From Prorocentrum cordatum (lineage: Eukaryota), in contig CAUYUJ010000142.1 in assembly GCA_963575745.1 (NCBI GenBank), positions 1 to 64,000 on the forward strand: a DNA stretch of 64,000 nucleotides. The letters are read 5' to 3'. Position 1 is the first letter of the stretch. The number at the start of each line of letters is the position of its first letter. Below the pieces are notes generated by a model. The model saw only the letters and a program-made list of their open reading frames with translations. It made no database searches and was not told the origin of the DNA. A program made the position numbers and the translations under genes. Below are positions 18,531 through 63,056 of this stretch, one piece after another.

Positions 18531-19852
18531 TTATTTTCTTTGCGCAGAGCCACGGGCCTGAGTCCAGGCCCGCTCGGGCCACAGCCACGCGCGGAGGGGG
18601 GCAGCGAAGCCTGGGGCTTGAAGCACCGCCAAAACACCCTGGGCCAGGTGCTTTGCAGCTCATAGCCCGGCTTGAGTTATCGGCGGCATCACATCACCAG
18701 TAGGAGGGGGCTTACTGATGAGCATTAGAGGCGAGGAGGTAGAGCAGGTTGCACAAACAAATCAAGTACCAAGCCACCGCCACAACCATCGGAACTGAAG
18801 TCATCGTCAAAGTAAACGCGGATTCCTCTGATGGTCCCGCATGCCGTGGCATAGTGACTCTGGCCCCTGCGGGCCAGCCATGTCGAATCATCAGCTCGTA
18901 CTTCCTTCGCGGTAGAACCATGCAACAAGATCACAACCATGGTATGGGGCCCTCAACTGTACATACTGGATTGCGGCAATCATCGTCGCATGCACATCGG
19001 TCGTACCCTGGAATATACCGTTGGCCCAGTTGCACACAAGAAGTGAGTCCCCGAGAATCTCCAGAAGCATCCCAAGGGCAACATGGTTCCAAGTCGTCTA
19101 GTGGTCGTCGTTATACTGCAATCGCTTTGATACCCTCTCTTTCTTCGCCTCCTTGTTCCGTCTGCTGACCTCCTCAGTCACGTCCTCCTTCTCCTCGCTC
19201 CAAGACCCTTTGGGATCCTTCAAGACAAAGTACTCCAGGAAATGTGTGAACTCCCAGACGCCTGAGACCACCCACGCAAACTGCTCCCAGGCATCCTCAT
19301 CCCACAGCAAGTTACAATACCAGTACGCCACTCCCACCAATTCAAACAGAAGGGTCCACGGTCTGAACCCCACAGAAGATGATTTTGCGGGGTATCATCG
19401 AGGAGCCTATTGGGGCTCTCTCGAGTCGTCGTAGTCTGGACGCGTTGTCCTTTTTTCTGAGCCCGCTCGCGCATCTGCCGGATCAGCTGCGGTTTGATTA
19501 AGCCCGAAGCAGGTGTCGACTGAGACCCACACCCAGGCACATCTGGGTCCGCGCACAAAGAAACATCAGCCTGCACCCATTGGGACTTCAGCCGAAGTAG
19601 AGGCCAATACGTTCTGAGAGCATCGTTGCGTTGCAGTACAGATATCCTTGGCTCAGGACCACTGACAAAACAAGACGAGCCAGGGCAAGGACGGCACGCC
19701 CAACATCTTCAGTGCAGCACGCGCCTGGCGACACACCCGATGCACGAAGGTAGTCCGATCCTCCTCTGGGCCCTTTCGCCCCCGCAGCATCTTCGCTAGA
19801 AGCCCCCCATCGCATCTGCGCAAAGCCCCAAAGCTTCTCTCATCCGCAGTCA
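18531..19852 (-). mobile_element. LINE-D: decayed 3' fragment of the same non-LTR retrotransposon group
   Basis: Broken frames give LRRCDGGLLAKMLRGRK (compare FEGMCLLRMSGRRK), ILGDSLLVCNWANG, FYREG..RADD and FDDDFSSDGCGGG. The 3' end abuts a half hairpin at 18500-18530. The 5' side is cut by a HINE end at 19853. Confidence 0.8.
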
Positions 19853-20813: not shown

Positions 20814-20921
20814 CTGGGAGCCGGCGGTGGACCGTCAACCTTGGTTTTTTTTGCGGTTTGCGGTCCGCCACTAGAATCCGAATCCGAATCGGCGGAGCAG
20901 TGCAACTGAGCCCCCACCTTC

Positions 20922-23900
20922 TTAGGTAGGTCGCAGCAGAGCGCACGCCACCTTAGCAGCAGCTCTCGTCAGGGCAGCGCAGGCAGCTAGTTCACAGCAG
21001 GTTACCGTGCTACCTGGAGGCAAGCTCATCGCCTCCTCGGCCACATCGTGCCAGTGGAAGCTCTGCGAGCTGATGCAGGAGGAAGAGGAGGAGGAGGAGG
21101 AGGAGGAGGAGGAGATGGGAAAATCAACCTGCACGCTGGAACCACTACCTAATACGCCAATCTGAAGCCACCACCCGCCTCCACATCCTTCATTACTGAC
21201 ACCCCCATCGAATGCACCACGGAGAGCAGTCTTACGAGTACTGAGGAACTGATCATATGCAAACCAGCGAGTAATAGTTTGGCCACCTCGGGCCTCCCAC
21301 GACAATCTATCCGCACGCTCACTACCCTCACGAAAGAAATGTTTATACAAATTCTGTCCCGATGCAGGTGAGGTCAGTCCCCATCCAGACAACATCGATA
21401 GAGTATTTTGCAGTACTCCCAGCAGTCGTACATACTGCTTGTTACGAATCTGCCACTCAGCACACATCCAGTTAACGACCGTCTTACTAACTCCCAAGAT
21501 TTTCATCCCAGAACGTTCAATACTCTCCCACCTCCACTCCGTTTCATGCTCATAATTAGCGGCAAGACGTTCGCTAATCCTCTCATTCATCTCTCTCTCC
21601 ACCTCCTCCTCCTCCGCCTTCACATACCTCACACCAGGTGGCCTGGGTAAAACAAATAACTCTAACAAGTGTTGCGTGCCAATCACAGTCAGCAGATGTT
21701 TGCAATATTTCTCGCGGGAGCCAGCGGAGCTGTCGAACGATAGGCACCACTCACAACCAAAGAGATCGCACAAACACCAATCCCATACAGTATGTCCACG
21801 GGCGGGGGCACCCATGTTCATGCGTGTGAGATGCTTCCTATCTTTTGAAGGCAACGCAAGAATACATGTGTCCCGATGTTCCGTCCACCTCCCCCTTCCA
21901 TGTAGCATGGTCAGCCTAGATATCATCCATTCACGTGAGATGTCCGACTCCCCGGGTATGGCAGGCTGATCACCCGTTGTCCGCCGTCGACCCCCACTCG
22001 ACATCTGGGAGATTTGGGATGCTAGAGAAGCCGCCGCCGCCGCCATCGCCCGAGTATTTATCTGACGCCGATTTGGCACCGTCTCCACATCCTCCTCAAC
22101 TGTGTGCGTTGTGTACCGCCTCATACGAATACTTGCAGCGACTGAGACATCCTTGGCCCAATCCCAACAACGAGATATCCATATCTGCACCGCACTTCGA
22201 AATCCAAGCTCAACAAACCTCTGCCGTCCAACTTTGGATCGCCTACGTTGAAACTCAGACCATCCTTCAGTTCTCCGCTTGCGTAGACCTGACATCAACG
22301 CCAGGCATCCCCCCTCAAAGAAGTGAACAGCAGCAATGGTGGAATAGTCGGGCGTTCGGCCCTCACAGTTGAATAATAATGCAGCAATCACTTTAGATTG
22401 ATAACGAGTAAATCTCTCAGCCAAATCAATACCAGAGCAGCGATAATAGGCGATTTCCCCAAAGAATACCTTCTGGGCGTTCTGGAGCATGGCCTCTGAA
22501 TCCGAGTGGTCCTTCCTGGTCTCCTCCAGAGTGGCCCCCAGGATCTCAAACGACTGAACACGCGGCAGGACCACCTCGCGGGCCCCGAGAGCAGGATCGC
22601 AAGACGGTGCAGCACACGAATATCCTGTTCGGGGGACGGCGGGATGCCAGGCGGCGCAACAAAGTAAATATACATCAAGGATTCCGGCTTCCAGGTCATT
22701 CCTGCATTCATCAGCGGGATACTCATGTCACGCACCATCAATTCGAGCTCGGAGCGAGTCTTCGCATACAATAAGAGATTATCTGCCCAGAAACTATGGG
22801 TCATACGCTCACCGTTGAACATGCGCTCATCGTTTTCCAACTTGATACCGTACTGCGTATCCTGCCTCCACCTGTCAACCACATCTCTCCAGAGTACGAT
22901 AGATACTGCTAGGAAAACCATCGGCCCCTCCACTCCTCCCGTTCGAATAGACTTGTCCCAATAGACAGCTGAAGATGCCTCGATGCCCTCGAAGCTGGCC
23001 ACACACTGATTATCAATCATGGGTTCAATCAACGCCACAATGAGATCAACTGGTATGTCAAGAGCACGAAGACAGCGCATGGCGAGGCACGGGGTAACAT
23101 TATCGAATGCTTGTAAAATATCAAGATTGGCAAGCCACAAACTGTCTCCTTTGCCCCAGACAGCGGAGTGCTGGCTGAGCCTTTTGGCAACGCTGGTGAT
23201 TTCCGATGTTTTTCGTCCCGATCTGAATCCGAACAGGCATACATAGTGTCGGTGCTTCTCAATCCTCTTCTCAATCATCATCACAATAAATGTCATGTAC
23301 CATATCATAAGACACGACTGTAGACATAGTACACGTGTATCTGTCAAGTGTTGTATGTCCATTTCCTTAGGCATGAGCGTGGCAGCTAGTTGACGCCAAC
23401 TGTCTGGGCAACATAACCTGCGGGAATACACACCATGGAAGCTCACCAGAACACGTCGGAGAGATGCCCACGAGAGCTGTTTCAACATCATGACAGTGAC
23501 GTTGTCGGGGCCTGGGGCCTTTCCCGTGGACAGCTTCGCCCTCGCCCGCAGCAGGAGCGACATCGAGAACACCTCCGAGGACCCACTTCGCAAACATAGA
23601 CCACGCAGCGACTGTAGCTCACGAAGGGTCACCTCCCTGGCCTCGGGGTCCTCAACCTTAGCCTTCATGTGCCCCAATATCTCGCCCCCCCACTCCTCGC
23701 GGTTCTGAGACTCCATCCCGTTGGCAAGGATCAGCGTATCCGTCTTGGCCCTCCTCCTCCTCCTCGTGTTCATCTCCGTCCTCCAGCCTCCCCCTTTCTC
23801 TCCTAACTATATTTGAGTACCGTTTGGCCTCCTCTCTATCCCCACGACGAAGTGCTTCGCGTTTACTTTCCTGGGCGGCCCAGTGGATCTCGGATTTCTT

Positions 23901-25076
23901 TGGTACATTATTTCTGGGATTGGTATCCTTCTGGGGGGTCTCCTCGGCGGCCTTTATGAGGTCAGGTCCTATCATGTCCAACATCTCCCGTCGATCCTCA
24001 GGGCCAGCATCTCCCTGGCACAATGCACGGTAACGACTGCCCCAATCGTCCATGTTCTTCGCAAACTCGAGCTGCGACACCGGTTGCAAGTAGATGAATT
24101 TTCGAGCAGGCTGGGTCCGTCTCTTCGCAGACGGCGCACAAGACAAGCGAACAACTAGGCAAGCGTGGTCAGACAGCGCACGCTCGCATCTGCTGCATGG
24201 GTGCTCCGTCCAGGCGTGGCCCACTTCCGCAGGCAGCATCCAGCCTACAGTGAGCTCCTGCCTGTGTAAACGACGGCTGACACCAACATAGTCAAGTACC
24301 TTCACCACCCCCGTACTTGATTTGAAAGTAACCCCCCTCTGCCCAAATGTGTTCTCCATCCTTATGCCCCAGAGCCCGCAGAAGTCCAGTAGGGCCCTCC
24401 TCATAGATTGCAGCCTAGACGCCCGTCGGATTTCGAAGCCCGAGACAACCCTATGAGGTCTTGATTTACGTGCACAACGTTTTGTTTGAGTCATATACGG
24501 GTTGCCGTCATCCGATCCTTCCTCCATCCCAGTATCCATGTCCGTAGTACCCCCAGCGATCCCAGACGCCTCCAGAAGCCCTGATCCAGTGACTCTGAAG
24601 CCGTTGACCTCCGAATCTGGCTCGAGTTCGACGTTAGCATCTGTCAAGAAGACCAGGTCCTGCGGCTGCTTCGGGAACTTAGACCTATGAGTGCGAAGCA
24701 CTTGGGATTTATCAAACAATATCTGTTCATACACATCATGTTCATGCTGTTCTTCAGTAAGGGTACGAATACTCGCATGCGGCATATATGCAACAATAAC
24801 CGTAACACTAGAATAACTACAAATCACAAAACCTTTGCCACGATATGTGGCCCTGAGCGAGTCTCTCCGAGACTTAGACCTGATCACCGCAGCCTTCCGA
24901 CAAGTACTCCGAAAAATTGTGTGACCTCGCATGTTGAGATCACGAGCTGAAAGGAACTGGCACTCGCACAACCCCGCGAGTCCCACATCTAAGCGACGTA
25001 GTGAATTAATTATGTCATGGCCGTTCTCTGCACCTGCCCGACGCACACTCCATGACGCAATGGCGTCGTGGCACCT
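20922..25076 (-). pseudogene. LINE-A ORF2 (APE-RT-RNase H), broken by two frameshifts
   Basis: APE motifs: IASWSV, LCEC, AYMP, TDANVEL, LDY, SDH. RT motifs: KAPGPD, LDILQAFDNV, SIRTGG, WADN. RNase H motifs lie in 20922-21500. Frame changes near 23765 and 22580. Confidence 0.9.
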
Positions 25077-26624
25077 CTAGTTCGTACTGGAAATCCTCGC
25101 TCGCAACTCATCAATGTTGATCCCTGGCTCAAGCTGACTCATTGCACGACTAATCCCCCAGCAATTCTGAAGAAAGAACTTGGCCACGATCATCCCTGGA
25201 GGGGGTAGGTGATCACTGGAGCCCCACATGAACGTGATCGGCGGTCCCGTCTCAGCCCTAAGATTTGAATGGTGCTTCTTGAAGCTCTTGAACTTTGCCT
25301 GAAGGATCCCAGCGGCATCCAGATGGGGCTTCTTCCAGGGGGGGGCCTCCACGTGAACCTTGAGGGCCCTGGGAGCATGCTGGAGTTTGTTGTCGGCAAT
25401 CGCGGCGACGAGTCGACGACGGAAATCCCACAGCTGGTCACTGGTAACCCGTTTCTGGAAATAGAGCCGAGCACGCGAATCACCACATGCCTCTCGACCT
25501 GTGTTGAACTTCTTGGATTGGTTCAGGTCAAGAAGCTCCTTGACACCACTGAACCATTCTCCAGCAAGGACCTCATTCAGGAGTGAATTCAACGCCTGCT
25601 GCGATGACATCTCCTCCTGACGCTTCTCTGCATCCCGCCAGTCAGTCACCCATCCCTTGAGCTCGACGAATGACGGAGTGAAATTCTGCATGGACTCACG
25701 AGTCTCCGCCGAGGACGCCGTCGTAGAGGTGCCTGCTCTGGGGGGCCCACCTGCAGGAGCCTGCTGGAGCTGAATAATCTGAAGCCTCTGATCCTCCACC
25801 TTCTTAGTAATGGCATATATGTCCGTCATCGCCTGCTGCACATTTTTCTCGACCGAATCAACACGAGCATTGAGCTGGGCGCCGAGATCCGCGATGCTTC
25901 GATGAGAAGACTGGAACCCCTCAGTCATCTTACCTCCCAGAGATGCTACAAGCCCAGTGATCTTATCCATACCCCTAGTCATGGCCTCCTCGAGGCCCTC
26001 GACAGTCTGAACTTTGACACGTTTCCCCTCTGGGACCTCCTCCTCCTTGGCTCCTGGAACGGGCATATCAGTGGCATCCATGGCGAAAATCTCTGGGACC
26101 ACAGCAGCTGATGAGGCAGCCATCTTACCGTCTGAGATGTTGCGAGGGATATCCCACTTCTCACAGAACGATGGATCTTCTCGAGTGCGCTTTAGATGTG
26201 CACCTAACTGATGAAAGTTGTATGGGGCACCAGGATTATGGGGTAGAGTAGGGGACAGATCAGGTGGTCCAGATGGTATGTCAACTAGAGAATATTTATC
26301 GTCGCGACGTGATACACAAACCTGTCTGGCATGATATTCCCACTTCCCAGTGTCCGAAGTTCGATCCCCAGCGGTCCAGATCAATCGATAAACTCTGGCT
26401 CGTCCCGTTGAGCTCGACGCGGCAAAATGCCGCACGCAATGCACACAAACAAATACAAACAAAGCGCAGGCGGCCTGCTTGCCTCGGACTCGCCGAAGTC
26501 GCCGAAGATGCCGAGCGGCCCGATCGCCACGCGCCCCCGCGCGGCAGGCCAGGCCACGGGCAGGCTGCCTGACCGCACAATGCGGCTCGAGCCGCACGAG
26601 AAAGCCCAGAGTTCCCGGCGGCAA
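25077..26624 (-). CDS. LINE-A ORF1 (coiled-coil plus conserved C-terminal domain; start uncertain, first ATG at 26123)
   Basis: Open 515 codons. The motifs PSFVELKGW, VEAPPWK and ETGPP have counterparts in ORF1 of LINE-B and LINE-C. Confidence 0.85.
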   Translation of the reverse strand: MPPGTLGFLVRLEPHCAVRQPARGLACRAGARGDRAARHLRRLRRVRGKQAACALFVFVCVHCVRHFAASSSTGRARVYRLIWTAGDRTSDTGKWEYHARQVCVSRRDDKYSLVDIPSGPPDLSPTLPHNPGAPYNFHQLGAHLKRTREDPSFCEKWDIPRNISDGKMAASSAAVVPEIFAMDATDMPVPGAKEEEVPEGKRVKVQTVEGLEEAMTRGMDKITGLVASLGGKMTEGFQSSHRSIADLGAQLNARVDSVEKNVQQAMTDIYAITKKVEDQRLQIIQLQQAPAGGPPRAGTSTTASSAETRESMQNFTPSFVELKGWVTDWRDAEKRQEEMSSQQALNSLLNEVLAGEWFSGVKELLDLNQSKKFNTGREACGDSRARLYFQKRVTSDQLWDFRRRLVAAIADNKLQHAPRALKVHVEAPPWKKPHLDAAGILQAKFKSFKKHHSNLRAETGPPITFMWGSSDHLPPPGMIVAKFFLQNCWGISRAMSQLEPGINIDELRARISSTN

Positions 26625-29600
26625 TCTTGGTTACCGCCGGGAACTCGTAGAGCGTCCTCCTGGAATGCCAGCGCGACAATCACGTATTCCAGGCGCGCAA
26701 GGGTATAGTTTCATGAAGGCGGACTGGAAGAGAAGAAGGAGTGAGGAGAAAGGAGATGAAGGAGGATAAGAAAAAGAAGAAAGAGCAGGAGGAGGAGGGG
26801 GAGAAGGAGAGGAATGACGAGAAAGGCATCGTGATCTCTGAAAAAAAGTCGGAATGATTTTCTGGTTCTAACTCTGGAAACGTGACAAGTTCAGGCATCT
26901 GGATACGTAAGACTAACGCGTTTGATGATTTCCTTCCGATTGATGTGCCAAACAGCTCTGTAGCTTGTCTGCTGCTCGAGTTAAGTCAAGACAGATACCC
27001 GCATCTCTATAAACATTAGCAGAGCATGAGAAGTTGATCTGACCCAGCTCTGGTAGCAGACCAAGTTTGGGCATTTAGATTATTTAGACTAGTGTGTTTC
27101 CTTTTCCTCTCGACTGCTGTGACAAACAGCTCTAGAACCATCACCATCTCTAGAAAATTAACAGAGTACGAACAGTTTTTCGAACCCGGCTATGGTAGCC
27201 GATCCAGTTCGATACTTCACTAGCGCGCCTGAAATGGTGATAAATGTGCCAGGCAGAAAGAAGTCAATGCGCGTTTGAAGTGGACATAGGCGAGGGCGAT
27301 ATTTAAGAAAGGGAGGTGCACGGTGGAAGAGATCAAGGCGGCCCGTCAACTGAAGCAGAAAGAGAGCAGCTTGCGCAGAAGACGTTCGACGGAGCGCCAC
27401 TTCCGACCAGAAGTACAACCCAGAACACACAAGGTTCCGGGCGGTAAACTGTCAACCTGGCTACCGCCGGGAACCTCGTAGAGCTCTTTTTTTGCGCGGC
27501 GATCCTCGGAACACATGAAGAAAGCTTCTGAAGCGAGAAACGAAAAACTCGAAAAATCACACTTTCTGTTTTTATCGAACGTCGGTTGCTCCAAGTGTTT
27601 TGATAGCTGTACTGCACCTACGGACCTCAGAATTTTGCTGGCAGACGCGGCATAACCCACTGCAGGTGCGAAAAATCACCTTTTTCAAAATGAATGGTCA
27701 AACTGGCACCGGCGGTGAACATTCAACCTGGTCACCGCCGGGAACCTCGTAGAGCTGTGAGAGTGCTCATAGTCGAAGGAGAGAGCTTCTGGAGGCATTT
27801 CTCAAAAATTGCATTGTTTTCATGTCGACATAAAGTTGGTTCCGCCAAGTGTTTTGATAGTAAAAGTGCGCCTACAGAGCTCATATTAAGACGCAGAGGC
27901 CCTCACAGTCGTCCACAGGTGCGAAGAATCTGGTTTCTCAAAATGAATGGTCAAATATCTTTCAAATCTTAGGAAAACCAACCAAAAGTTGTCACATTGT
28001 CCGTTCTGGCCGGGTCGACCAACTGGCTCCACACCGCCGGAATTCCTCTAGCCCATCGATTTCGAAGAGCTCTACGAGGTATATCTTTCAAATCGTTGGA
28101 AAACTGATCCCAGGTCATCTCATTGTCTCTTAATGTCGGGTAACCCAACTAGCTCCACCCCGCGCCGGAATTCCTCTGGCTCACGAGGTACTAGGGTGTT
28201 ACACTGGCGCCGGCGGTGAACCGTCAACCTGGTCACCTCCGGAAACCTCGTAGAGCTCCTCCACGCGTGAGAGTGCTGATAGTCAAAAGAGAGAGCTTGT
28301 CGAGGCATTTCTCGAAAAATTGAACATTGATTTTTTTCATTTCGAGATGAAGTTAATTCCCCCAAGAGTTTTGATGGTGAATGTGCGCCTAAAGAGCTCA
28401 TACTGGGCGACGGCGGTAAACCGTCAACCTTTCTTACCGCCAGGGGACTCGTAGAGCTTCCTGACCATGCATTATGTCGAGAACGAATAGTTTTAGAGCC
28501 CGGGCTGCCAGCAGACTGATCTCAGGCGTCTAGTGATATCCCATTGCTCTGCTCAACAGTTCTATCTCATCTGCAGCGTCTGGAAAATACCTTAGGAGAA
28601 CTTTCGCCTCATGATTTCCTTCTGATTTTTCGGCCGCTCGAGTTCAGCTAAGCAATTCACCATTATTTGGAAGAACGAATACGAAAAAAAATTATGCAGC
28701 TGCCCTGAAGCTCGAGTAAAGTACAGAAAACCGACAGTCCCTGTAGAGATCACTCGAAGGATACGAATAGTTCTGCGAACCCAGCTCGAGTAGCAGACCG
28801 AGTTGAGACCTCTGCATGCAACAGGCGAACGCCTGATGTATCCGAATCGGTTTCTGTAAATACGAGCCCTGTATTTGCCCTGAAGCCCGAGTTAAGTACA
28901 GATAACCGAGAGTACCTCTTAAGATAACTCGAATAATACGAATAGTTCCACACCTAGCTCGAGCAGCAGACCGAGTTCAGATCTCTGGATCCAACAGACA
29001 AACGCGCCTGATGATCCTAAATTCTTTTCTGTTAATATCAGCTCTGTAGCTCTTCTGTAGCTCGAGTTATGTTTAGAAAACCGTCGCCGCGTGTCAAGAT
29101 GACCCGATACGGCCGATCCCGCCGCAGTGCTTTTTGACAGTAATATCTACCTGATCGACCTGAGACTGAGATGACGAGCGGGAATAAGATCAAATATCAC
29201 GAAAAATAATACTAGAGCTTGAACGAATTTTGAATTTCAAGGACGAAATGTTCAACCGACGAAAAGTTAGCAAAAGGTCCGTCGAGGTTTTTCTTGTCAA
29301 CTAGCTCTCCACCGTCCCAGAATTGCTCTTGAGCGTCGAGCAACTAGCTAAGAGAAGCTGTACAATTCATTCAAACGCAGAGGCTCTCATAGTCGTTTAT
29401 AGGTGCGAAGAATCTGGTTTCTCCAAATAAATAATCAAATATACTGGGAACCGGCGGTAAACCGTCAACCTGGTTACCGCCGGGAACCTCGTAGAGCTCT
29501 TTTCTTGCACGGCGATCGTCGAAACACATGAAGAAAGCTTCTGGAGCGAGAAACGAAAAACTCGAAAAATCACGTTTTTCTGTTTCTATCCAACGTCGGT

Positions 29601-37341: not shown

Positions 37342-40300
37342 TCAACCTGGTTTGTTTGTTTGGACTCGCGTTCCCAGCCGAGTGCAGCCGGGCGAGGACC
37401 GGTCCCGCAGAAGCACACGGGCAGCGCTGAGCAGCGCTTCGGCTGCCGACAATTCACATTCTGTGACTGTAGCTCCTTCGAGGAGCCACGCGGCCTCGGC
37501 CACATCCCTCCAAACGAGGGGCACGGCACTAGAAACAGCAAACTCATGCCCAGCAGGGAAGGGGCCCACGGTTCTCGCGGAAGCGATGCCTATCTCACTG
37601 GGATTGCACTGAGTATTGATTAAGCCGATCTGAAGCCAGAAACCACATCCTGATCCTTGCTGGTCAACCCCGCCATCAAAGCCTCCCCTGATAGCGAACG
37701 GTAAGAGATAAGTTTCGAATGGATATAGATAACAATGAGTTCTGTAGAATGTGCGGCCACATCTGGCCTCATGCGTCAATTCATCCGCTCGTGTATTGTC
37801 CTCCCTGAATTCATGTCTCCATATCTCACGTCCCAAGGCAGCAGGCCTCAGATTGAAACACGCAGCGAGCTCAAAGGTACAATCAATCATGGCAGCTGTC
37901 CTCTTGCAGTAGCCACGATTCTCACATCTCCATTTCCCCTGTAGCCAGGAGCAGATAAGTAATGAGTCACCCTTGAACTCAGCAGCAAAACCCTCTGAGG
38001 ATATATCCCACACAGTCGCACGTTCCTGGATCATAGCATAACGTATTGCAAGCTTGGCGGACTCTTTGGGGTCGTACTTGGGGCGCAGAGGGTTGGTCGC
38101 GATGTCGACCGCATCAGTATCGGCCTTCTCTTGAGCCTCAGGGGAGCCTCGAGGTCCATTAGGAGAGCCCTTCCAAGACACCACAAAGTAATCATAGACC
38201 TTAGTTTTGTTGTATTGTGTAAGGAGTTGCTTCCACACCTCCAAGAACTGAACCCAATCGCCCCGTACAGACTCCCACAACTTTTCCCCAAAGAACTGAA
38301 TGTAGGGGAACTGCCAAGACCGACCGCCCACAGACACAGGGCCTCCACGAAGCCGCTTGCCCGAACTAGATAAGGCCCTGTTGCCGTGTTGTCGTAGAAC
38401 CTCTGTTATTGCGTCGCGAGCCGTGACCCAGCCAACATTGTACATCATAAGCGCACGTCGGGAGTCTCGAAAGGCCCTCCTCCCCTTTGAGACGGTAAGT
38501 GGCTCGTCTCTGAGAGTGTGGGCAGCTCCCTCTCCAGAGGGCATCGGCTGTGAGCGGGCAATGGAACAGGCGACCTGCGAGCAAAGATCCTCCAGCCGCC
38601 TCTCCATATCCGTAATCCCCCCCTCCACCTCCATCACAGTCGCTGCAGGTACATCCTCCCCCCGTCCATCCGTAAAGCGAACACGTTTAGCACGTTGAGT
38701 CGTTGATCCCTCCACCTCAACCTCCGTCCTTGCCGTCCTGTCCTCCTCCAAAGATTGTAAATATTGCCTCGTGGAGCGCATCATGCCCCAGCTCTTCCAA
38801 CACAGCATCTGCACAGACGACGTGAAACCCCCATCGCAGAAGATTGTCCTGACTCGTGTCAGCGCAGCTGGCCGCCATACCTCCCACCCCACATCTCCTG
38901 GCTTCCTCCTCCCTGACATTCTCAGAAGACACATACCCTCGAACGCATGGATAACCCTCACACACTCACTGTCAATCGTGATGGCCTCTGCTGCATATAA
39001 AAGACGGCTCTGCACAGTCGATTGATATCGACGAAACTTCTTCACCAGAGGCAGCGCCCTGCACGTAAAATACTGCACCTGCGCAAAGAATGCCCTTCGG
39101 GCCTGCTGGACGCGCTCCTGCACATCCGTGTGGATAGAAGTGAAACTTCTGGGAATCTGATACCCCAGCACATTCAAACTCTCAACATGCTTGAAAGGAA
39201 CAATCCGCGAGCCAATCTGAACCGTGACCGTATCAGTGTACTGAGTACCACACACCATCATCTCTAGACTCTCCTCCTTCCACTCCATCCCCCAATCCCT
39301 GAGAGCAGTAGTGAAGGCAGCGGCCGCTACCTGCGCCTCCGATGCTGACTTGGCGGCCAGAAAAATATTGTCAGCCCAGAGAGCATGATTCCAACGTGCA
39401 TACCGACAATGATCATCATGGCATGGCATCTCGACTCCGACACCGCGCTGATCCAGGCGAGCAATCACATCACGCCACATAGCAATAGTGACAATAGTAA
39501 ACGCGATAGGTGATTCGGTACCCCCAGTACGGAGCGACCTATCCCACTGCACATTGGGGATTGTCACTCCTTCAAACAGCACCGTGCATGAAGTAGATGA
39601 GAGAGGCTCCAATAACGCATACTGTAACCGTGCACTGATCCCAAGGGCCGTCATCGCTCTCGAGACTGTCGGCAACGTCACAGCATCGAACGCCCGCTCG
39701 ATGTCACAGCTGAGGAGCCACGCCGTTTGATCTCGCCCCCATGTGGAAGCATGTTGTGCAATACATTTCATGGCCGATGAAATCTCCCAGCAACGTCGTC
39801 CGCTGGTAAAACCGAAAAACCGCCATTTCACTCATGAAGGGTTCCACACATCGTTCCAGTAAAATCGTCACACACGTGAGATACCACTTGGCCAAGGTAT
39901 TTCCGACAAGCAGGTTCCTTGTTTGTCGCAATGTTTCCAGTTTGCTCGTTTTCGGCATAAGTGTTAGGTATACTGCCTGCCATTCCCTTGGCGTCGGGCG
40001 AAGCCCGTTGGATATATCAGATAAAACCTTACCAATAGAACGCACTGACCTCCACGAAAGAGACTTGAGAAGTTCAACCGAGATGCCGTCGGGCCCACAG
40101 GCCCGTCCTGTTCGGAGCCTGCTCCGCGCCTGCAGAATAGTAGAGTATGTAATCGTAAGTGTGTTGTCCGAAGAGGCTGCTGATTGAGATGCATGGCGAC
40201 GCAGTGTGGACACAAGCTCCCGATTGCGGGCTCTGGAGTCATCACAAGTCATACTCTGCACAGCATATCGCTCCACCTCCTCCGCCCACAGTTCCCTGTC

Positions 40301-41620
40301 CTCCGTCATCAAAGTCGTAGGCCCCATATCCCCTCCCCCAGTGTCCGTCACCCTCAACTCCGTCACACGTGTCCTCCTCCCCTTCCTAGGTGGTAGCGCC
40401 TCCCACTCCACCTTCCGTCGGCGATATTCCCGCGCAAGCGGTCTGATGCGACGTCGAAGGTCCCGAGCCAACGCTCTGTCCTTCCTAGCACGTGCCTCTC
40501 TGAGTTGTACCTCCAGCTCGGCATGCTGAGGAGTCCTACTCGGCGGGAGCCCTCGAGAGTACCTGGGGGCCCTCACCGTGAGGAGCGGTAACGCATGTCC
40601 AGCAATCGTTTCAGCAAGACGTTGTGGGGGCACCGTCGGGATCTGGACGTCCGCCAGGACCTGAAATTGGGCCTCCTCCCGATACGATTGGAACTCTTTG
40701 TGGCTTGTGTGGTGGCTAGGGGGGCCTTGATATTTCGTGACCTGAGGGTTCTGCATATGGAACTCGGCGTAGACACAGGCATGATCCGAGAAGTTGGTAG
40801 TCGGGGTCTCTGGGATCCAATCCGTTCGGCATTCAACCAAGTCACCCTCCCAGGATTGTGGGACCATGAGATAGTCAAGCACTTTTGGCGCAATAGTCTT
40901 CGCCCCAGACTTGCGTCGAGCATTATTCGCACGATGCGCGAAAGTCGGCTGCCGAGAGCACGGCGAGCCAAGAGAATTGACTGCCAGCAAGCGCATCCGA
41001 CACAGCCACTCCTGCAGCTGAGATCGCCACATGTCCTCCTCCCACCGTCTATCCTCCGTATCATTCCCATATCCCCTCCCGTCGAGAATCTGCACAGCAC
41101 CTCCAGTCACCGTGCCTCCTGAACAGGTGATGTCGGGCGCAAGCTCAACATTAAAATCCCCTGCAATCACAAGCTCACATGTGTATCTGCATTCCTCCTT
41201 CCACCTCCGATAAGTTGTTTCGATTGTTTTCAGCATCTCAAAAGCCACCTCCAATGAACGATTCTCCGATCTGTTCGGAAAGTACGCAGAGACAAGAAAG
41301 ATACACGGATGACGCAAGCACACAATAGCAAGACGAGCATGATTACTCCAAGAGCGAACTATGTTGTGACAAGACTTCCCCCTCAAAGCTATGGAAGCCT
41401 TCCTGTCACTTGAATAAACTAGGTGCCAGCCAAGCAGCTGAATTGAATTGGACGGTAAGTGTTCACACTCCTGTAAACAGAACACTTCACAGCCGTGAGA
41501 AAGAAGTGCCCTCATGCAAGCAAATCCCCGATCTGCTGTAGCCCCTTGTTTCATAAGATTCTGGGTGCCTAGCCTATGCTGGGCTGTGGGGCCACCAGCC
41601 CGACTGGCACCTCTGCACCG
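37342..41620 (-). pseudogene. LINE-B ORF2 (APE-RT-RNase H), one frameshift near 39830
   Basis: APE motifs: LGTQNL, CLQE, SAYFP, GDFN, LDY, SDH. RT motifs: ACGPDG, CDIERAFDAV, SLRTGG, WADN. RNase H motifs: GDS, REDNTRAD, FDGG, TECE. Confidence 0.92.
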
Positions 41621-43409
41621 TCACACCCTGCCGGCAAGACTCGTAACAAATGTGTCGTATGTAGTCGTCACACCGCTTCGCATAAGTACCCCCTCCCAGA
41701 TCTCGCGGTCCACTGTCCACCCCGTATTGATACGAAAGGATGCCAGTTCCACGGGTCGATGCTGAGGGTCCTGCGGCTTGGTCCACATTGTGCTCCGTCC
41801 GTTGGGTCCCGATCCTGGCTCCCCCCTGATCTCCATGGCCTCACTGTTGGTACACTCGCGGTATGTCCCATAGAAGCGCCCCACAGCCCCGATATGATCA
41901 CGTTTCCAAGGTGGGGCCTCTATGCGTACGCGGACCCGACTGGGTCGTTGTAACATGCCCTGGAACATGCTGTCATAATCTGGAGGTGACCTCGAAACCT
42001 GAGCCGCATTCCTTTGGGGATTCGGAGTTAAAGCATCATCAAAAGCACGCTTCACGTTGTATAATGTCGAAGAGTCGGTTCCTACAATGAATTTGATTTT
42101 GATCGTACTCAACATCATTCTACTTCCATTCATACGTAATGTGCCCTCGTAGTCGATCCTAGCTTCATCCTCTGCTGCGATGGCCGTCTTCAAATTAGTG
42201 ATGAATTGTGCAGCGTCCGTGTCTCTCATCATACTGGCCGAACGTGCAACCGCTGTCCCATTCCAGTCTGTCCAGCCTGTGAGCTCCACATAGCTGGGAC
42301 TGAAACTGGAGGGTCCTGAGAGTCCTGGTGGGCCCCCTCCGTAGGAAGGTGCCGTAGTCGAGGCTGCACCTGATATCACACTGGGGTTCTTCTTGAGATC
42401 CTGCATCTGTCGTTCCAAGTTGTTCATCCTGATGTCGGAGGCCTCCTGACGATTCGAGATGCTCTGAATATCGGCCCTGATTTCGACGTTTTCTTGTTGC
42501 CTAACTTTGCTCTCAAGCACGTTGAGCTCCGCGAAGGCCTTGAACCAGGATGGGGCCTCGTCCGAGACCACACTGAGTTTCTTTCGCTTCTCCTCGAGTT
42601 CTCCCAAGAGTGCCTCGTGAGGACCGTTGACACGATGTTTGACATTTCGTTGGGCATCGTCGCTAACACCCTGCATACCCTGACGCTCCCCAGCACCTTC
42701 AGGGACAACAGCCGCTTGGGCCGCCGCCTGTTGTGCCTCCGTGGGCATACCTGGGGGTCCCCCTAGAGCACCTTGTGGAGCTGGGCCTCTAGGAACAACA
42801 GGAGCGCCTCCAGATCCTTGACCTCCAGAACTGACCTGACCTACTGGAACCCCTCCCGCACGCCCTCCGTTGGTTGTAGCTCCCGCCACAGCTGCGTTGG
42901 AAGGAGTCTGCATCATATTCATGAGTCCTGTATTCATATTCACAAATGAAGGTGGGACAACACAATGGCTATCACTATCTGGTGTGGAGTCGGCAGTATT
43001 CAATCTCCCGTCCAATGGAAGGTCACGTACAATCTGCTCGGTATCCTGAATTTGCCTCTTCCGAGATGCCCTCTCAACAGCAGAATCTGGTCTCTGTCCG
43101 TAATCCTGTGAGTACTGCAAATATGGTACAGTCAGGGAAATATCCTCCAGCTGGAAACGTCTCGCAAGCACTGAAAAGTCGTACCCGTCCGTCTTTGCAC
43201 ACACGACAAACAAAACAACAATTACAGCACACAAAGCAGGCGGCCTGGCTTGCCTGGAAGATGCCGTACTCGTCGATGGCAGCGATGGCCGCCGCGCCGC
43301 TTCCCCGCGGCGCCGACACCCCCTGAGCTCCTGTGGGATCCAGGAGCCCTAGAGCCGAGATGTCTTGAGCTCTTTTCTTGCCCAGCTCCTAGACCTCGTA
43401 GAGCTCTTT
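37351..43409 (-). mobile_element. LINE-B: full-length non-LTR retrotransposon
   Basis: Splits the hairpin ccggcggtaaaccgtcaaCCTGG | CTTGGctaccgccgg (37346-37350 and 43410-43414). It has a (CAAA)n tail and ORF1 plus APE-RT-RNase H. Confidence 0.93.
41621..43234 (-). CDS. LINE-B ORF1 (start uncertain)
   Basis: Open 537 codons with a coiled-coil-like stretch, then PSYVELTGW and IEAPPWKRDH. Confidence 0.85.
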   Translation of the reverse strand: MCAVIVVLFVVCAKTDGYDFSVLARRFQLEDISLTVPYLQYSQDYGQRPDSAVERASRKRQIQDTEQIVRDLPLDGRLNTADSTPDSDSHCVVPPSFVNMNTGLMNMMQTPSNAAVAGATTNGGRAGGVPVGQVSSGGQGSGGAPVVPRGPAPQGALGGPPGMPTEAQQAAAQAAVVPEGAGERQGMQGVSDDAQRNVKHRVNGPHEALLGELEEKRKKLSVVSDEAPSWFKAFAELNVLESKVRQQENVEIRADIQSISNRQEASDIRMNNLERQMQDLKKNPSVISGAASTTAPSYGGGPPGLSGPSSFSPSYVELTGWTDWNGTAVARSASMMRDTDAAQFITNLKTAIAAEDEARIDYEGTLRMNGSRMMLSTIKIKFIVGTDSSTLYNVKRAFDDALTPNPQRNAAQVSRSPPDYDSMFQGMLQRPSRVRVRIEAPPWKRDHIGAVGRFYGTYRECTNSEAMEIRGEPGSGPNGRSTMWTKPQDPQHRPVELASFRINTGWTVDREIWEGVLMRSGVTTTYDTFVTSLAGRV

Positions 43410-57170: not shown

Positions 57171-57671
57171 TAACTCGTAGAGCTTCCATTAGCAAGTTGT
57201 TGCTGGAATCTTAAGAGTAATAACTCGTAGAGCTTCCCTCGGCAAGTTGTTGCTGGAAGCTTAAGAGTAATAACTCGTAGAGATTCCCTGAGCAAGTTAT
57301 AAGATGTGGAGCTTCCTTAGCTAGTTGCGGGAAGCTTAAGGGAAATTCCGGCGCGCTGGAGAGCTAGTACCTCGTAGAGCTCTTCGGCATCGATGAGGTA
57401 GAGGAATTTCGGCGCGGGGTGCAGCTAGTACCTCGTAGAGCTCTTCGGCATCGATGAGCTAGAGGAATTCCGGCGCGGGGTGCAGCTAGTAACTCGTAGA
57501 GCTTCCCTTAGCAAGTTGTTGCTGGAAGCTTAAGAGTAATACCGGCGCGCTGGAGAGCTAGTTCGCAAGAAAAATCTCGACGGACCCTGCGCTGACTTTT
57601 GGTCGGTTGAAACTTGGTTGGGTGTTGGGGTCGGCTACACAGGGCGCGTGCGCCCTAGCCGTGCAGAGTCC

Positions 57672-60600
57672 CTAGGGTCCCTCACGCCCTCTCAACCTCT
57701 TTGGGGTTGGAGGCCCGATGATCTCAGAGATAATCTGCCGAACACCTTGGAGCAGGCGTTCACAAGCTGTGAGCTCGCTATCTGTAACAGTGGCCCCCAG
57801 AGGGAGTAAAGAAGCCTCCTGGAAAACTCGTCGCCAGTGGTTGTCCCCAAATGAGACCTCCACATAGCAACCTAGAGCAGAGCCTTCAACACTCACGCCA
57901 CCGTCCCATCCTCCACGGATACGTTTGATACAATGTCTCTGTTGTCGCAAATATCTGAAGTCAATCCATCTTCCCGTCCTTCCCCTCCTCGCCTCCCAAG
58001 TCAACTCATCCGCAACACAATTGAACTCTCTGTAGATATGCTTCCACGGATCCGTCCCTACAGTGGCACACCTGATGTCGTAATCCTCAGCAAGTTGATT
58101 CATATCGTTTTGTAGACCATGCACTCTCCTGCGGTACGAACGATCACGGCATTCCCAGATCCCTCGGGCCCAGTTCACCACACACATACTATCACCAGTC
58201 ATTTCAACCAACAATGAGCCCTCCGAGCCCTCCTGCCAGACAGTTTCGTTGTTATATCCGTGGGCAATACTACGAGCGAGCCTGTCGGAGTCCTCAGGGG
58301 AGCCCCACGTATCCACAGGACAAGGAGCACAGGGCGGTTTCCTGAAGATGGGCTCCCATCGAGGCTGTATTTTTGTCACGCACGCAACTACATTCCACCA
58401 GTCCGTCGCATTCCACTTGATGCTGAACCAGCGTAAATTACCACTCGCCGCCAGCATAAGACAATGCCAGCTGTCAGTGCTTGCATGCGCTCTCCCTCCC
58501 ACTCTCCTCGTACCTTCCCTCCTCCTGGCTCCCGTGAACATGGATACAAGTGTGTCCCTCCGTAGTGACCATTCCCCCGCACAGTGTAACATGGCCTGAG
58601 GCGTCTGGCGCCAGGCTCGTGCTCCACGCATGTCCGTGGAGGCGAAGGCCCGATCATGAAACTGGGCCAGCTCCAACGCAAACTCGAAATTGGCTCGGAC
58701 CACCTTCTCTAGGAGACTGCAGTGGCCAGCCTGCAAGAATAGCTCGTAGGACTTCGGTGTGGTCCTGTCCCTGAACTCCTCCCACGTCTCCTCCTCCCTC
58801 TTGTGTAATCCTCGCATACCGTTGAGACACCTCCCCTCCCAGACCTTAATCCTCTCCAGCAGTCGTAGATTGCACGGCCAGCCTATACATCCGTGGCACA
58901 CCACAGACTGCACACGAGCGGCATACCTGCGAAACTTCTCTTTGAGTGAGACCGATCCGGAGCGATAAAACTGGATGTCAGCAAAATAGGCCTTCCTCCC
59001 TTTCTCCAGTCGATGATACAAGCCGTGATAACCTTTGATTTCCGAACTGAGCTTCACTCCTAGTACCTCCACCTCCTCCTTCCTCGGCATTACGACAGTC
59101 GAGCGCAAGTGCTCTGGGAGATCCTCATCTCCAGAAATCGCACAGATGGCTGGCGAGAGCGGGCAGAGCAGCGGCGGATCGCCACATGTGTACGTCTGGC
59201 CAAAAAGTACATACGCCAAAGAATCCTCCTTCCAGTCCATCCCTGCCCGTCTGAGTGTTACCGTCATCATACCGATCATCTGTTGTAGCTGGAGTTGCGA
59301 TGCAGCACAGAGCGTAACATTGTCCGCCCACAAGAAGTGGTGTACAAGAGCACCGTCCGTCCCCTCCCCTTCCAGTCGGACACCGTATCCTAAGGTATCC
59401 CAAGTCTGAATCACAGATCCCCAGATGGCCTCCAAGACAATATTGAAAAGTATAGGTCCCTCCTTACCTCCCGTTCGGACCGATTTATTGTATCTCACCT
59501 CATCGCCGCACACGTTCTGAAACTCAAAGGTAGCAATGTTATCCAGCATGGGCTCCACAATGGCTCTAATGAGGCACACAGGGTACTTAAGGTACAGCAT
59601 GGCCTTGATGATAGTGCGCAGTGTGACATTATCGAATGCTTTGTGTATGTCCAAGACTCCCACGTGCATAGACTCCGCCTTCCCCCACACATTTGCATGT
59701 CTAGTAAGATGTGATAGTGGTGCCGTGACGTTAGTAACCTTCTGATCCTTCTCAAATCCGTATGTGCACAACCGTCGGTTCACAGGAAATGCATCAATAA
59801 ACTGCAACACACATGCCATGTACCATTTACTCATCACACTGATCAGGCAAATCCCTCTGGTGTTGGAGAGTCGTGTAGCATCCCGCATCTTCGGCACAAG
59901 TTGGATACTGAGCTGCCTCCACGTCTCAGGGCTGGAGGCTCCCTGCTCGAAAATCCTCTGGAAAGCACGCCGCACAAACAAGAGGCTCCTCCACGGCAAC
60001 TCACGAATGACCTCAGCAACGACTCCATCGCTACCGGGTGCCGTGCCAGGCTTCAAAGACGCACGAGCCTGCATGAGCATGCCCATCGTGATGACTCTTC
60101 CCTCCACCCCACGGTCGTTGTGTCTGAGTTCCTGAAAGGCCTCCAAAGTCCGTTTTTCCTCCTCCGAGTTCGTGTAAGACGCCGTCGCATACCTAGTGAT
60201 CTCCGTACTCCACCTAGTCCTGTCCATTGTCAGCACACCCTCACACTCCAGCTCCTTGAGGATACACCGTGAGGTCTTACTGGATCCCTTGTGGTCCTGC
60301 AGGAGTTGGTTCCTCCTATGCTGTCTCCTAAGGGTCTTCCTCCTACGCAGCAGTTGTTTACGGGCATTCCCAAGGGCCCCACGCCTGATGGCAGACTCCA
60401 CCTCTATGAGCTCCCTGGGCCTCTGAATAGGTTTGCAGTTGGGGCGCCCCTTGGCGTGGTCCACAAGCTTTGCCGTCTCCAAGAGTACCCGTCCGACCTG
60501 CTGCAGGTCCGCCCCTACCGTGTCCGATGCAAGCCCCTCAATCGACACATCCGCAAGCACACGAAACATGTTCCTCGCCGCGTCATCCGTCGGCTGCCAG

Positions 60601-61455
60601 CCTACCATGGACACAGGGCGGGGCGGCAAACACTGGGCGCCTGATCTCCGTAGTCTTGAGATTTACCCAGACCAGAGCGTGATCACTATAGGCACTGGCT
60701 TTTGCACGTATACCTGGCGTAGCTTTGATGGGTTCCACAAACTGGACCTGGCATCTCATTTCCTGGTGAGCTCTTGCCTCATCCGCGCACCAACGTGTAG
60801 GGATGAGTATATAGTCAAGCACACGCTGCACATGTGTGGAACAGTACGGTATATGTGTGATACGTCGATCTCCATATGTGTTCGCCGCACAGATCCCCCA
60901 AGTACTCATGAACCTCATAAGCATGTCCCTCCTCTCTGCATGGTAGTTCGCCTCCTCCCTCCTCCCGTCCACCTGCATAAGACCTCCTCCCGTCATTCCC
61001 AGCATATCTGGTTCAAGTTCCGTCTGAGCATCCATCCCCACCCATGGTATGACTCCAGCCTGTGTAGTTTGAAACATAGTAACACTGCACTTAGTAAGTA
61101 CATCTAAGTATTCCCCCAAGTGGTCAACATCACGCATCACGCATGGTAGATACACTGATGTAACTAGAGCACCCCTGAATTCGACACACGCAAATCGTAC
61201 CCCACTCCGTCGTGCAATCACATGTGGTGCCCAATCCCTGCACCATGCAACCGCCGCCTTGGAGCAGGAGCTATAGTGAATCTCCCATCCACATCTGTTA
61301 AAAGTATTTGCACTGGTATGCTCACACTCTTGCAGACACACCATTTGAATTGACCTGGCTTCACATGCAGCGACCAGGTTGGGTACTTGACCGTCGGATA
61401 TTTTCTGCACATTCCAGGTTGCGACAACGGTCTCTGTCGCAGCCCTACCGCCCCG
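57672..61455 (-). pseudogene. LINE-C ORF2 (APE-RT-RNase H), one frameshift near 60600-60640
   Basis: APE motifs: VATWNV, CLQE, SVYLP, GMDAQ, LDY, SDH. RT motifs: APGSDG, LDIHKAFDNV, SVRTGG, WADN. RNase H motifs: GDS, REFNCVAD, WDGG, TDSE. Confidence 0.92.
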
Positions 61456-62970
61456 TCAATGATTCGGGCACCGTAGTGTCTGAAGAAACTGCACCTGGTT
61501 AATATCGGGCTCAACGTGTGTCAAATTGTCACCATAGAGGTTCCATCCTTTTGTCGGTCCCCATTCTGCAATCAATGTCTTTTGTGTAGTATCATCAGCA
61601 TTCGGCATATACCACGTATATGTCATTGGCGGACCCGTCTCACCTCGAAGAATAGCCGTCGCATTTCCCTTGATATCAGAAAATAGTGCTTGAAACCTTC
61701 ATACCGCCCGAACATGTTCTATCTTCCATGGCTGGCATTCAACTTGAAATCGCACATTGGGAGGCAATGAAGTGAGTCCCCGCCTGTAATCATTCTCCCA
61801 CACACGTTTCGCTTCCCATAGGATCTCAGAGGATGTACCTGGCTTGAAATAGATCCTACCCCTCGTGCACGGCCAATATCTACCAGTATTCTCCTGAACC
61901 GTCCGATCCAAGTCCAGTGCCACCCTCTGTGTAGCATCAATTTGTTTAGAGTCAATAAGACCATTCATCGCCGTCGTCAGTGCCTCCTGTGAAAGAGCCT
62001 CCCGCTGACGTATCTCACGGTTCCTCCATCCCTCCCTTGAAACCCATCCCTTGAACTCAACATAACGTGGATTCCAAGCAGGATCGTGCCTGTCCGTACC
62101 CGCCTTCGTGGATCCACTTGCTACCGACAACCCGTCCCCCTGCTTGAGCTTCTGAACTTCATTGGTGAGGTCCTGGATCGCCGATTCTGTTTTCGATACC
62201 CTGGAGTCCAGGGATGTTTTCAGACCGTCCATTTCCGTACGAATAGAGTTCCTGAACGATTGCATGTCTGCCGTCATAGTCTGTTGTCCCGTCATGATGG
62301 ATCGAAACATCTGTTCAATGTCAAGGCCAGCTTCCTGGGCAACCTCATTCGCACCCAATGTCTGTCCCGCACCTCCTCCTTCTCCTTTCCCTCCTCCTTT
62401 GACATTACGAGCACGGACAGCTCTAGCAAACGCCCCACCCCCATCATCAATTGTCATGTCCTGGCCCATCGCATGCAAGCCTGGAGCACCTGAAACTGAA
62501 GAACCTGCTGGCATCGCTGGTGCAGCACCTGAAACTGAAGAACCTGCTGCAGCCATCTTCCTTTTGTGACTGCGTAATATATTGAAATCGTAACCTTCAC
62601 CCTGCACGAAGTGGTTACGCAAGAAATTGAAATCGTAACCTTCACCCTGCACAAACGGCACTGTTGGTGTGAGCGATGGCACACAAATAACAGCTCTCCT
62701 GTCACCTCGAGGTGTCCCGACCTGTCTGGCAAGATAGTCCCAGTCCGCGTGACTGAAGTCGGACCCCCAGCACTCCGTCGTTCCAAGAGAGAAGAAAAGA
62801 GACAATTGCAGCAGTAGCAATAACAATAACAAGTGCAGGCGGCCTAGCACACGCAATAACAATAACAAGTGCAGCGGCCTAGCTGACCTCGACCTCGCTG
62901 AACCCGAAGAAGACGAAGAAGGCAGCGATGGCTGCCGCGCCGCCGTCCCGCGGCGGCGCGCCCCCCACAC
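61456..62970 (-). pseudogene. LINE-C ORF1 with an internal TGA at 61699-61701; true stop at 61456-61458
   Basis: PRYVEFKGW and VECQPWKIEH. After the TGA the frame continues RFQ...RGETGPPMT...EPDINQ, matching the C-terminus of LINE-A ORF1. Confidence 0.85.
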
Positions 62971-63056
62971 ACGCTAGACGCCTGTGGGATCCAGACGCCT
63001 TGATCCAGACTTGAGCCAAGAGCGTCCAAAACCCGGAGAGCAAGCCTTGATCCAAA

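Follow-up and report, generated by a model that had tools for sequence, protein, structure and literature searches.

We analysed a window of 64,000 nucleotides (nt) from the dinoflagellate Prorocentrum cordatum (contig CAUYUJ010000142.1, positions 1 to 64,000), in which three related retroelements, LINE-A, LINE-B and LINE-C (LINE, long interspersed nuclear element), lie on the minus strand, embedded in satellite DNA. In each of them ORF1 and ORF2 (ORF, open reading frame) share one frame and are separated by a single stop codon, which is probably read through in a programmed manner to yield an ORF1-ORF2 fusion protein. Readthrough is favoured because the common frame is conserved over spacers of differing length, because only one stop intervenes, because of the Arg codon after it and the position of the predicted stem, and because no usable start codon is available for ORF2. 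The frame kept over unequal spacers, an Arg codon (MGR) as the one that follows the stop, and the stem at position +12 of the viral numbering are the evidence that discriminates between the possible explanations.

All three elements carry ORF1 followed by an ORF2 with an endonuclease, a reverse transcriptase (RT) and a C-terminal RNase H-like domain, and the RT was recognized by Pfam RVT_1 above the cut-off in 3/3 elements. A fourth, out-of-sample lineage, L001, was the sole locus obtained from a metagenome scan (215 pattern matches). LINE-A, LINE-B and LINE-C are APE-type LINEs, as follows from the order of the ORFs, the RVT_1 match, the R1Bm- and TRAS1-like fold of the endonuclease and the target duplication of LINE-A. 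For the modelled endonuclease domain of L001 (predicted local distance difference test score, pLDDT, 85) the top Foldseek match was the R1Bm endonuclease (E 5e-11), and TRAS1 was matched with E 4e-10. The endonuclease profile matches ExoIII; motif I is aligned with the SWNV of ExoIII and forms the end of strand beta-1 (model strand residues 9-15). The Asn of motif I is an active-site residue in the APE/ExoIII family, and in LINE-A it is replaced by Ser (SWS). Pairwise protein identities among the four lineages are 21-33% for ORF1 and the endonuclease and 29-40% for the RT. In a quick endonuclease tree, which has long branches and is poorly resolved, the four fall in separate parts, and an RT tree of eight rows contained zero supported inner branches. 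ORF1 had no Pfam family and no useful ESM Atlas match, and its relatives gave weak coiled-coil-type hits. At the 3' end LINE-A has an A-run and an exact 7-nt duplication, LINE-B a (CAAA)n tract and an imperfect one.

The stops, contexts and frames of the three junctions (Table 1) are exactly those given in the original prediction, which had been made from the letters of the window. In L001, ORF1, endonuclease and RT form one open frame over 4 kb with the junction TGA as the sole break (CAG TGA CGA TCC, with an 8-nt spacer and an 8-bp stem), so that the arrangement of ORF1, single stop and ORF2 in one frame is found in 4/4 lineages. Between the stop and motif I there are 7 (LINE-A), 18 (LINE-B), 12 (LINE-C) and 12 (L001) stop-free codons. 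If the frames were free, the chance of finding all of them in frame would be (1/3)^3 = 0.04 for the window and (1/3)^4 = 0.012 with L001 included. The codon after the stop encodes Arg in all four lineages, namely AGG in LINE-A, CGG in LINE-B and LINE-C and CGA in L001. The predicted lack of an ATG between stop and motif I was likewise confirmed for LINE-A, LINE-B and LINE-C: the stretch extending 31 nt upstream and 25 nt downstream of the stop has no ATG in any frame, and an in-frame ATG first appears past motif I, at +147, +69 and +114 nt from the stop, respectively. Since motif I is situated on strand beta-1 and precedes the first AUG, a start at an AUG would lose it in any of the three.

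For a survey of the stop in other sequence data, contigs of four public runs, one of which is possibly the source of the window itself, were aligned to the LINE-B junction. A long contig bridges the stop in three of the four runs, with 15, 9 and 6 differences, every one of them listed, and zero at TGA CGG TGC; the fourth run provided short, indel-rich contigs only. In the shared frame 30 of the 40 listed substitutions are synonymous (24/30 in ORF1, 6/10 in ORF2), figures which apply to the rows listed, with 49 further substitution rows outside that set. Both reading frames are under selection. A profile built from the three read-through junctions matched 174 proteins among representatives at 50% identity. 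The last ORF1 motif was found in 76 proteins among the best 150 of the 174, and 66 of the 76 end 22-34 residues past this motif, a count which is partly circular because the motif profile was built from hand-picked sequences. Of the remaining ten, four stop short, two enter unrelated sequence, one belongs to a gene model to which later parts have been attached, and three run in frame into motif I. These last three are P0037 with Trp at the stop position, P0094 with Arg, and P0092; in P0037 and P0094 the next residue is again Arg. All three are single records, two coming from the same dataset and one being an incomplete gene model, and they point to a common frame in other lineages rather than to activity of fused elements. 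The sisters of LINE-A and LINE-C stop at the very residue at which the window copies do, and three further proteins of the L001 cluster also end at the residue of their junction. Close sisters of the LINE-A and LINE-C families (P0013, P0041, P0061, P0075, P0037 and P0094) bear the EukProt label 'Pyramimonas sp.', and other relatives are gene models of P. cordatum. A word-based protein search gave no long fused ORF1-ORF2 proteins of 1,100-3,140 residues, which is a weak negative, 0 matches for LINE-B ORF1 and one protein for the RT region; scans of viral contigs and prokaryote genomes gave zero loci. The stop is conserved over deep divergence and the feature is real.

Downstream of the LINE-B stop an unbroken helix of 15 bp is predicted, which starts at +12 in viral numbering and has its 3' arm about 175 nt downstream. 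It is stronger than the helices at 483/483 control positions in the element (p 0.002), and the 204-nt region reaches z -3.0 when compared with dinucleotide shuffles and z -1.75 when compared with synonymous ones. Variation is reduced here as well: of the 32 variable sites listed for the main contigs, 0 fall inside the 203-nt span of the stem (p 0.0007 for uniform placement, 0.036 for ORF2 sites only), in a test that left out eight listed rows (low-depth and diverged contigs, a repeated site), three of them inside the span and none in the arms. A stem about 8 nt after the stop is predicted clearly in LINE-B, with 8 bp at the same position in L001 and weakly in LINE-A and LINE-C. The local hairpins originally proposed 5-14 nt downstream do fold in all three elements (5, 9 and 14 nt past the stop in LINE-A, LINE-B and LINE-C), though each is weak alone, with z values of -1.6, -0.8 and -1.3 against dinucleotide shuffles, none significant singly. 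Combined over four lineages they reach p 0.005 in a comparison by position and p 0.04 in one with synonymous shuffles, for a window chosen after the data had been seen. A DNA alignment of the four junctions gave no alignable consensus.

Translation of the element RNA would begin at ORF1, and most ribosomes would halt at the junction stop and release the ORF1 protein. In a small share of cases a near-cognate tRNA would decode the stop, and translation would continue in the same frame via a short linker into the endonuclease, the RT and the RNase H-like domain; the product would be an ORF1-ORF2 fusion that stays uncleaved. How much leaks through would be set by the Arg codon after the stop (CGG, CGA or AGG) together with an RNA structure that begins about 8 nt further on, much as alphaviruses and coltiviruses do it, and base-pairing between a GUGCAGA heptamer and the element's 3' end may contribute. 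Much ORF1 protein and little polymerase would result from one mRNA.

The closest counterparts are viral signals of type II, defined by the hexamer UGA CGG or UGA CUA, which is present in LINE-B and LINE-C and absent from LINE-A (UAG AGG) and L001 (UGA CGA). Alphaviruses (Venezuelan equine encephalitis virus, VEEV, and Sindbis virus, nsP3-nsP4) and segment 9 of Colorado tick fever virus (CTFV) share UGA CGG with LINE-B and LINE-C and likewise have the polymerase in frame downstream. According to passages of one source, CTFV combines UGA CGG UGU, to which the UGA CGG UGC of LINE-B comes close, with a 17-bp stem from +12, and VEEV combines UGA CGG with a stem from +12 (PMC13517186). LINE-B resembles these signals in the position of its stem and in the reduced variation after the stop, for which passages on alphaviruses report raised conservation over about 150 nt (PMC3159437). 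Unlike the viruses, the elements described here are nuclear non-LTR retrotransposons (LTR, long terminal repeat) known from sequence, in which the stop can be followed or replaced by other contexts (UAG AGG, UGA CGA), the structures differ by lineage and no protease was found. In gag-pol of Moloney murine leukemia virus (MoMLV) a structural ORF and a pol ORF also lie in one frame with one stop between them and a structure at +12, and much structural protein and little polymerase are made. Readthrough into an env-like frame is known from SIRE1. Both are LTR-type elements with a protease, and MoMLV uses a pseudoknot, whereas the window elements have an APE endonuclease and LINE-type target duplications.

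Several observations weigh against readthrough. The elements had been taken as full, and they are full-length; none of the three, however, is intact, with two ORF2 frameshifts in LINE-A and one each in LINE-B and LINE-C, and ORF1 of LINE-C carries a second in-frame TGA (61701-61699) at a Gly conserved in relatives. The proposed likeness to viral signals holds for UGA CGG in LINE-B and LINE-C and for the strong stem of LINE-B, but the UAG AGG of LINE-A lies outside all three viral context classes, the UGA CGA of L001 is not among the listed viral contexts, and UAG is described as inefficient in type II contexts in passages of PMC13517186. The short stems of LINE-A, LINE-C and L001 are unremarkable (helix p 0.38, 0.28 and 0.13; synonymous-shuffle z over 204 nt -0.7, -0.7 and +0.1), so that only the LINE-B structure is strong. 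As regards frame and context in other copies, L001 is in frame and TGA CGG TGC is intact in the three bridging contigs, but one low-depth contig of run X3 has a sense Arg codon (CGA) in place of the stop and, right after it, what looks like a 16-nt deletion. The spacer of L001 contains in-frame TTG, GTG and ATG codons before motif I, the ATG in the middle of beta-1. Among 32 endonuclease-side matches, the called start lies ahead of or within beta-1 in 13 and after motif I in 19; the early-start set includes the lineages nearest LINE-B (P0025, P0058, P0142 and P0181) and P0129 with a 55-residue leader, and some related lineages may own a separate ORF2 start. Finally, the argument from the missing ATG is weaker than first stated because L1 ORF2 translation is independent of its AUG (passages of PMC4091050, PMC5009743 and PMC13705589) and because SART1 reinitiation also needs a downstream structure (passages of PMC5972666, PMC10275272 and PMC2881922).

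These starts lead to the alternative that survives best, although we consider it unlikely: termination and reinitiation as in L1 and SART1, by which ribosomes would restart near the stop at a non-AUG codon, or at an AUG where one is present, and produce a separate ORF2 protein, with the structure and the heptamer positioning the ribosome. Reinitiation is reported for both LINEs that have been studied, and human or mouse L1 and Bombyx SART1 resemble the window elements in having ORF1 and an ORF2 with N-terminal APE endonuclease and RT, in the dependence of ORF2 on ORF1 translation and, for SART1, in the downstream structure. In human L1, ORF1 and ORF2 also lie in one frame. The GTG and ATG of L001 precede motif I by four and two codons, and the called proteins of several relatives have Met at this place, gene callers writing GTG and TTG starts as Met. 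L1 and SART1 differ in that their proteins are separate and ORF2 starts with an AUG (after a spacer of 63 nt in human L1, within a UAAUG overlap in SART1), whereas in three lineages no AUG precedes motif I, and the window elements differ further in WADN for YADD and in an RNase H-like domain that looks permuted. A SART1-type coupling, with an AUG overlapping or adjacent to the ORF1 stop, is absent from LINE-A, LINE-B and LINE-C, and near-cognate codons between stop and motif I are scarce (only AGG in LINE-B and LINE-C, AGG and ATT in LINE-A). Work by Alisch in 2006 reportedly found ORF2 translation to be lowered when the L1 spacer contains a stable hairpin, which would count against reinitiation at a structured junction. 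Above all, reinitiation leaves unexplained why the frame is kept over stop-free spacers of unequal length in 4/4 lineages and three run-on proteins, and why an Arg codon follows the stop. That a fusion is made by readthrough, as the original prediction had proposed, is the best-supported reading; it held in L001, in the population contigs and in the family-wide survey of ORF1 ends, and it would account for these features together.

It is very improbable that the stop is altered in the RNA, by A-to-I or similar editing to UGG guided by the stem, or that UGA is read as selenocysteine. UGA and UAG are each one A-to-G step from UGG, and P0037 has Trp at this position; edited RNAs would return as fused elements, but the 66 ORF1 proteins described above end there. 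For the Naiad Penelope-like elements, which share with the window LINEs the recoded in-frame stops in a retroelement without LTRs, UGA-to-selenocysteine recoding has been proposed, as passages of Craig et al. (2021, PMC8557442) state. There, UGA replaces a conserved Cys and a selenocysteine insertion sequence (SECIS) is present, whereas here a single stop stands at the ORF1/ORF2 border in a variable linker and can be UAG, as in LINE-A. Rfam gave zero matches in the window or L001, and no dedicated SECIS search was made. A separate RNA for ORF2, in which a second trans-splicing or an intron removes the stop or frees ORF2, has a slightly smaller chance still. L001 starts with 8 nt (L001:1-8) that match the last 8 nt of what we take to be the dinoflagellate spliced leader, and P0013 of the LINE-A family skips the junction in frame. 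The leader brings no AUG, however, to elements that have none before motif I; the spliced RNA would be the one copied back, yet the copies retain the stop; and the aligned contigs, which are of DNA type only, contain no joint across the junction. Least probable of all, and largely refuted, is an unprogrammed stop, whether by decay of a fused ORF (e.g., CGA to TGA), assembly error or host stop reassignment as in Amoebophrya sp. ex Karlodinium: the other lesions in the window copies, the CGA copy in run X3 and the dinoflagellate relative with all three stops reassigned (passages of PMC6394959) would fit, but dozens of families have the stop at one and the same protein position, high-depth contigs from other runs have it too, and the 2,720 codons around the four junctions include 62 TGG, 126 CAR and 1 other in-frame stop.

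The heptamer GUGCAGA lies at most 60 nt from the stop in 4/4 lineages (at +25 in L001) and, being found in three codon phases, is a nucleotide motif. It was first spotted by eye; a shared 7-mer occurred in 0 of 20,000 random sets of 60-nt windows and at 0 of 112 matched offsets, and with wider windows the matched-offset control gave 1/108 to 5/100. Complements lie near the 3' ends (Table 1), the YUGCAC of LINE-C being 68 nt from the end, and a decayed fourth 3' end has UCUGCGC (18548-18542), which could pair with GUGCAGA if one G-U is allowed and lies about 16 nt ahead of the target junction; 7-mers of this kind number three in the 17,208 nt of the three elements. When blocks of each element were ranked by their duplex with a 22-mer anchored on the motif, the last 70 nt came 7 of 77 (LINE-A), 1 of 81 (LINE-B) and 1 of 73 (LINE-C) (Fisher p 0.001), and 3 of 142 control 22-mers reached rank 1. 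On the opposite side, an unanchored best-helix test between the post-stop region and the 3' end was negative (p 0.11 and 0.35), the motif windows of LINE-A and LINE-B pair well also with the tails of other elements, the best duplex of LINE-B uses the neighbouring UUCUGC and not CUGCAC, and the LINE-B heptamer would sit inside the ribosome during stop decoding. The predicted pairing is a possible lead, not a result. Tombusvirus readthrough needs pairing with a 3' end 3.5 kb away, according to passages of PMC3234231, and p33/p92 of Carnation Italian ringspot virus (CIRV) is alike in its stop with a 3'-proximal stem and in the candidate partner about 4 kb off at the 3' end. Unlike in CIRV, the pairing here is predicted, short (6-8 bp core) and not in the bulge of a large stem, and the LINE-B heptamer lies at most 9 nt from the stop. 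That a widespread LINE clade makes an uncleaved fusion by readthrough licensed by heptamer pairing with the 3' end about 4 kb away must be regarded as rather doubtful. In L001 the 5' stem arm (L001:1426-1433) has two candidate partners, at +21 to +28 and, perfectly, at +73 to +80, each of which overlaps a GUGCAGA copy.

Table 1. Positions of the LINE features within the 64,000-nt window; offsets count from the junction stop.
Feature	Position	Strand	Remarks
LINE-A, whole element	20847..26625	-	flanked by exact 7-nt duplication AACCAAG (26632-26626, 20846-20840)
LINE-A ORF1	25080..26123	-	from first ATG; frame open from 26630
LINE-A junction stop TAG	25077..25079	-	context AAC TAG AGG TGC
LINE-A local hairpin	25050..25071	-	weak; longer alternative 25068-25039
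LINE-A GUGCAGA	25027..25033	-	+44
LINE-A ORF2	20922..25076	-	endonuclease, RT, RNase H-like; two frameshifts
LINE-A RNase H-like domain	20990-21600	-	
LINE-A UUGCAC	20900..20905	-	complement with one G-U pair, 59 nt from 3' end
LINE-B, whole element	37353..43409	-	about 6.0 kb, in satellite palindrome
LINE-B flanks	43416-43410, 37352-37346		imperfect 7-nt duplications AGCCAAG, AACCAGG
LINE-B ORF1	41624..42937	-	from first ATG; frame open from 43348
LINE-B junction stop TGA	41621..41623	-	context GTG TGA CGG TGC
LINE-B GUGCAGA	41612..41618	-	+3 to +9 after stop
LINE-B 15-bp extended stem, 5' arm	41598..41612	-	starts 8 nt after stop; predicted
LINE-B 15-bp stem, 3' arm	41421..41435	-	codes part of endonuclease QLLGWHL
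LINE-B local hairpin	41564..41611	-	alternative fold using same 5' arm
LINE-B endonuclease motif I (TQN)	41558..41566	-	first in-frame ATG next, 41554-41552
LINE-B ORF2	37342..41620	-	APE endonuclease, RT (WADN), C-terminal RNase H-like; one frameshift near 39820
LINE-B RNase H-like domain	37460-38050	-	
LINE-B CUGCAC	37382..37387	-	complement of heptamer core, 35 nt from 3' end
LINE-C, whole element	about 57600-63010	-	
LINE-C ORF1	61459..62556	-	from first ATG; interrupted by in-frame TGA 61701-61699
LINE-C junction stop TGA	61456..61458	-	context CAT TGA CGG GGC
LINE-C local hairpin	61420..61441	-	8-bp stem, 14 nt after stop
LINE-C GUGCAGA	61404..61410	-	+46
LINE-C ORF2	57672..61455	-	endonuclease, RT, RNase H-like; one frameshift near 60640
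LINE-C RNase H-like domain	57780-58250	-	
LINE-C UCUGCAC	57661..57667	-	exact heptamer complement, just past ORF2 stop
Same-site insertion boundaries	26640-26626, 20846-20821, 43424-43410, 37352-37328, 18532-18500		

LINE-A, LINE-B and a remnant share one insertion site, the loop of the palindrome CCGGCGGT...ACCGCCGG, which recurs more than 20 times in the surrounding satellite; LINE-C is located elsewhere. The remnant is a decayed 3' part of a fourth related element (18533-19250, minus strand) and comprises the RNase H-like part only. The catalytic RT motif is WADN instead of YADD in LINE-A, LINE-B, LINE-C and L001, and YADN in P0058. The C-terminal RNase H-like domain looks circularly permuted, with the GDS...HxxRExNxxAD half preceding the FDGG...ELxA half. 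The former half has weak matches to archaeal-type RNase HI (residues 72-134, E 0.038) and to Pfam RVT_3 (its second half). In a wide fold search with this domain no match exceeded Z 5.7, chains of archaeal RNase HI fitting only one half with Z 3.5-3.9, and a literature search found no report of a permuted RNase H-like domain in such elements.

The true start of ORF1 is unsure because the frames continue without a stop far upstream of the first ATG. In the 5' regions, DNA motifs are common to elements whose proteins are less than 30% identical: CTGGATCCCACAGG occurs in LINE-B and LINE-C (43343 and 62994), a 22-nt motif in LINE-A and LINE-C (26342 and 62742), and GGCCGCCTGC stands beside TTGT-rich tracts in LINE-A, LINE-B and LINE-C (26475, 43245 and 62844), all on the minus strand. 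The 5' end of LINE-C (63010-63019) has a 10-nt match to the spliced leader in the form assumed above. A full spliced leader was not found in the window, and a 12-nt match with one mismatch at the LINE-C 5' end is within chance. The leader-like 5' ends of LINE-C and L001 suggest copying from trans-spliced RNA and speak for a dinoflagellate host.

The question of how LINEs synthesize ORF2 when the mRNA carries two genes is still open; reinitiation is used in both cases that have been worked out. In the searchable open literature, with Repbase, subscription journals and supplements outside the scope, no ORF1-ORF2 readthrough was found described in a LINE, and the sole passage found on LINE readthrough, in PMC4176336, concerns engineered premature stops. 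If readthrough is indeed used, it would represent a third solution in the style of gag-pol, reached independently of viruses, and it predicts that a fusion protein is made, which may become part of the ORF1 coat around the RNA encoding it. A dinoflagellate would thereby provide a direct case of programmed recoding, and such elements would have been mis-annotated as broken. The signal would be compact, with about 200 nt at the junction plus about 70 nt at the 3' end. Should the heptamer pairing also prove true, polymerase would be made only from full-length RNAs, which have the end required for reverse transcription, and the RNA could be switched between copying and translation by pairing of its 3' end, like the RNA of tombusviruses.

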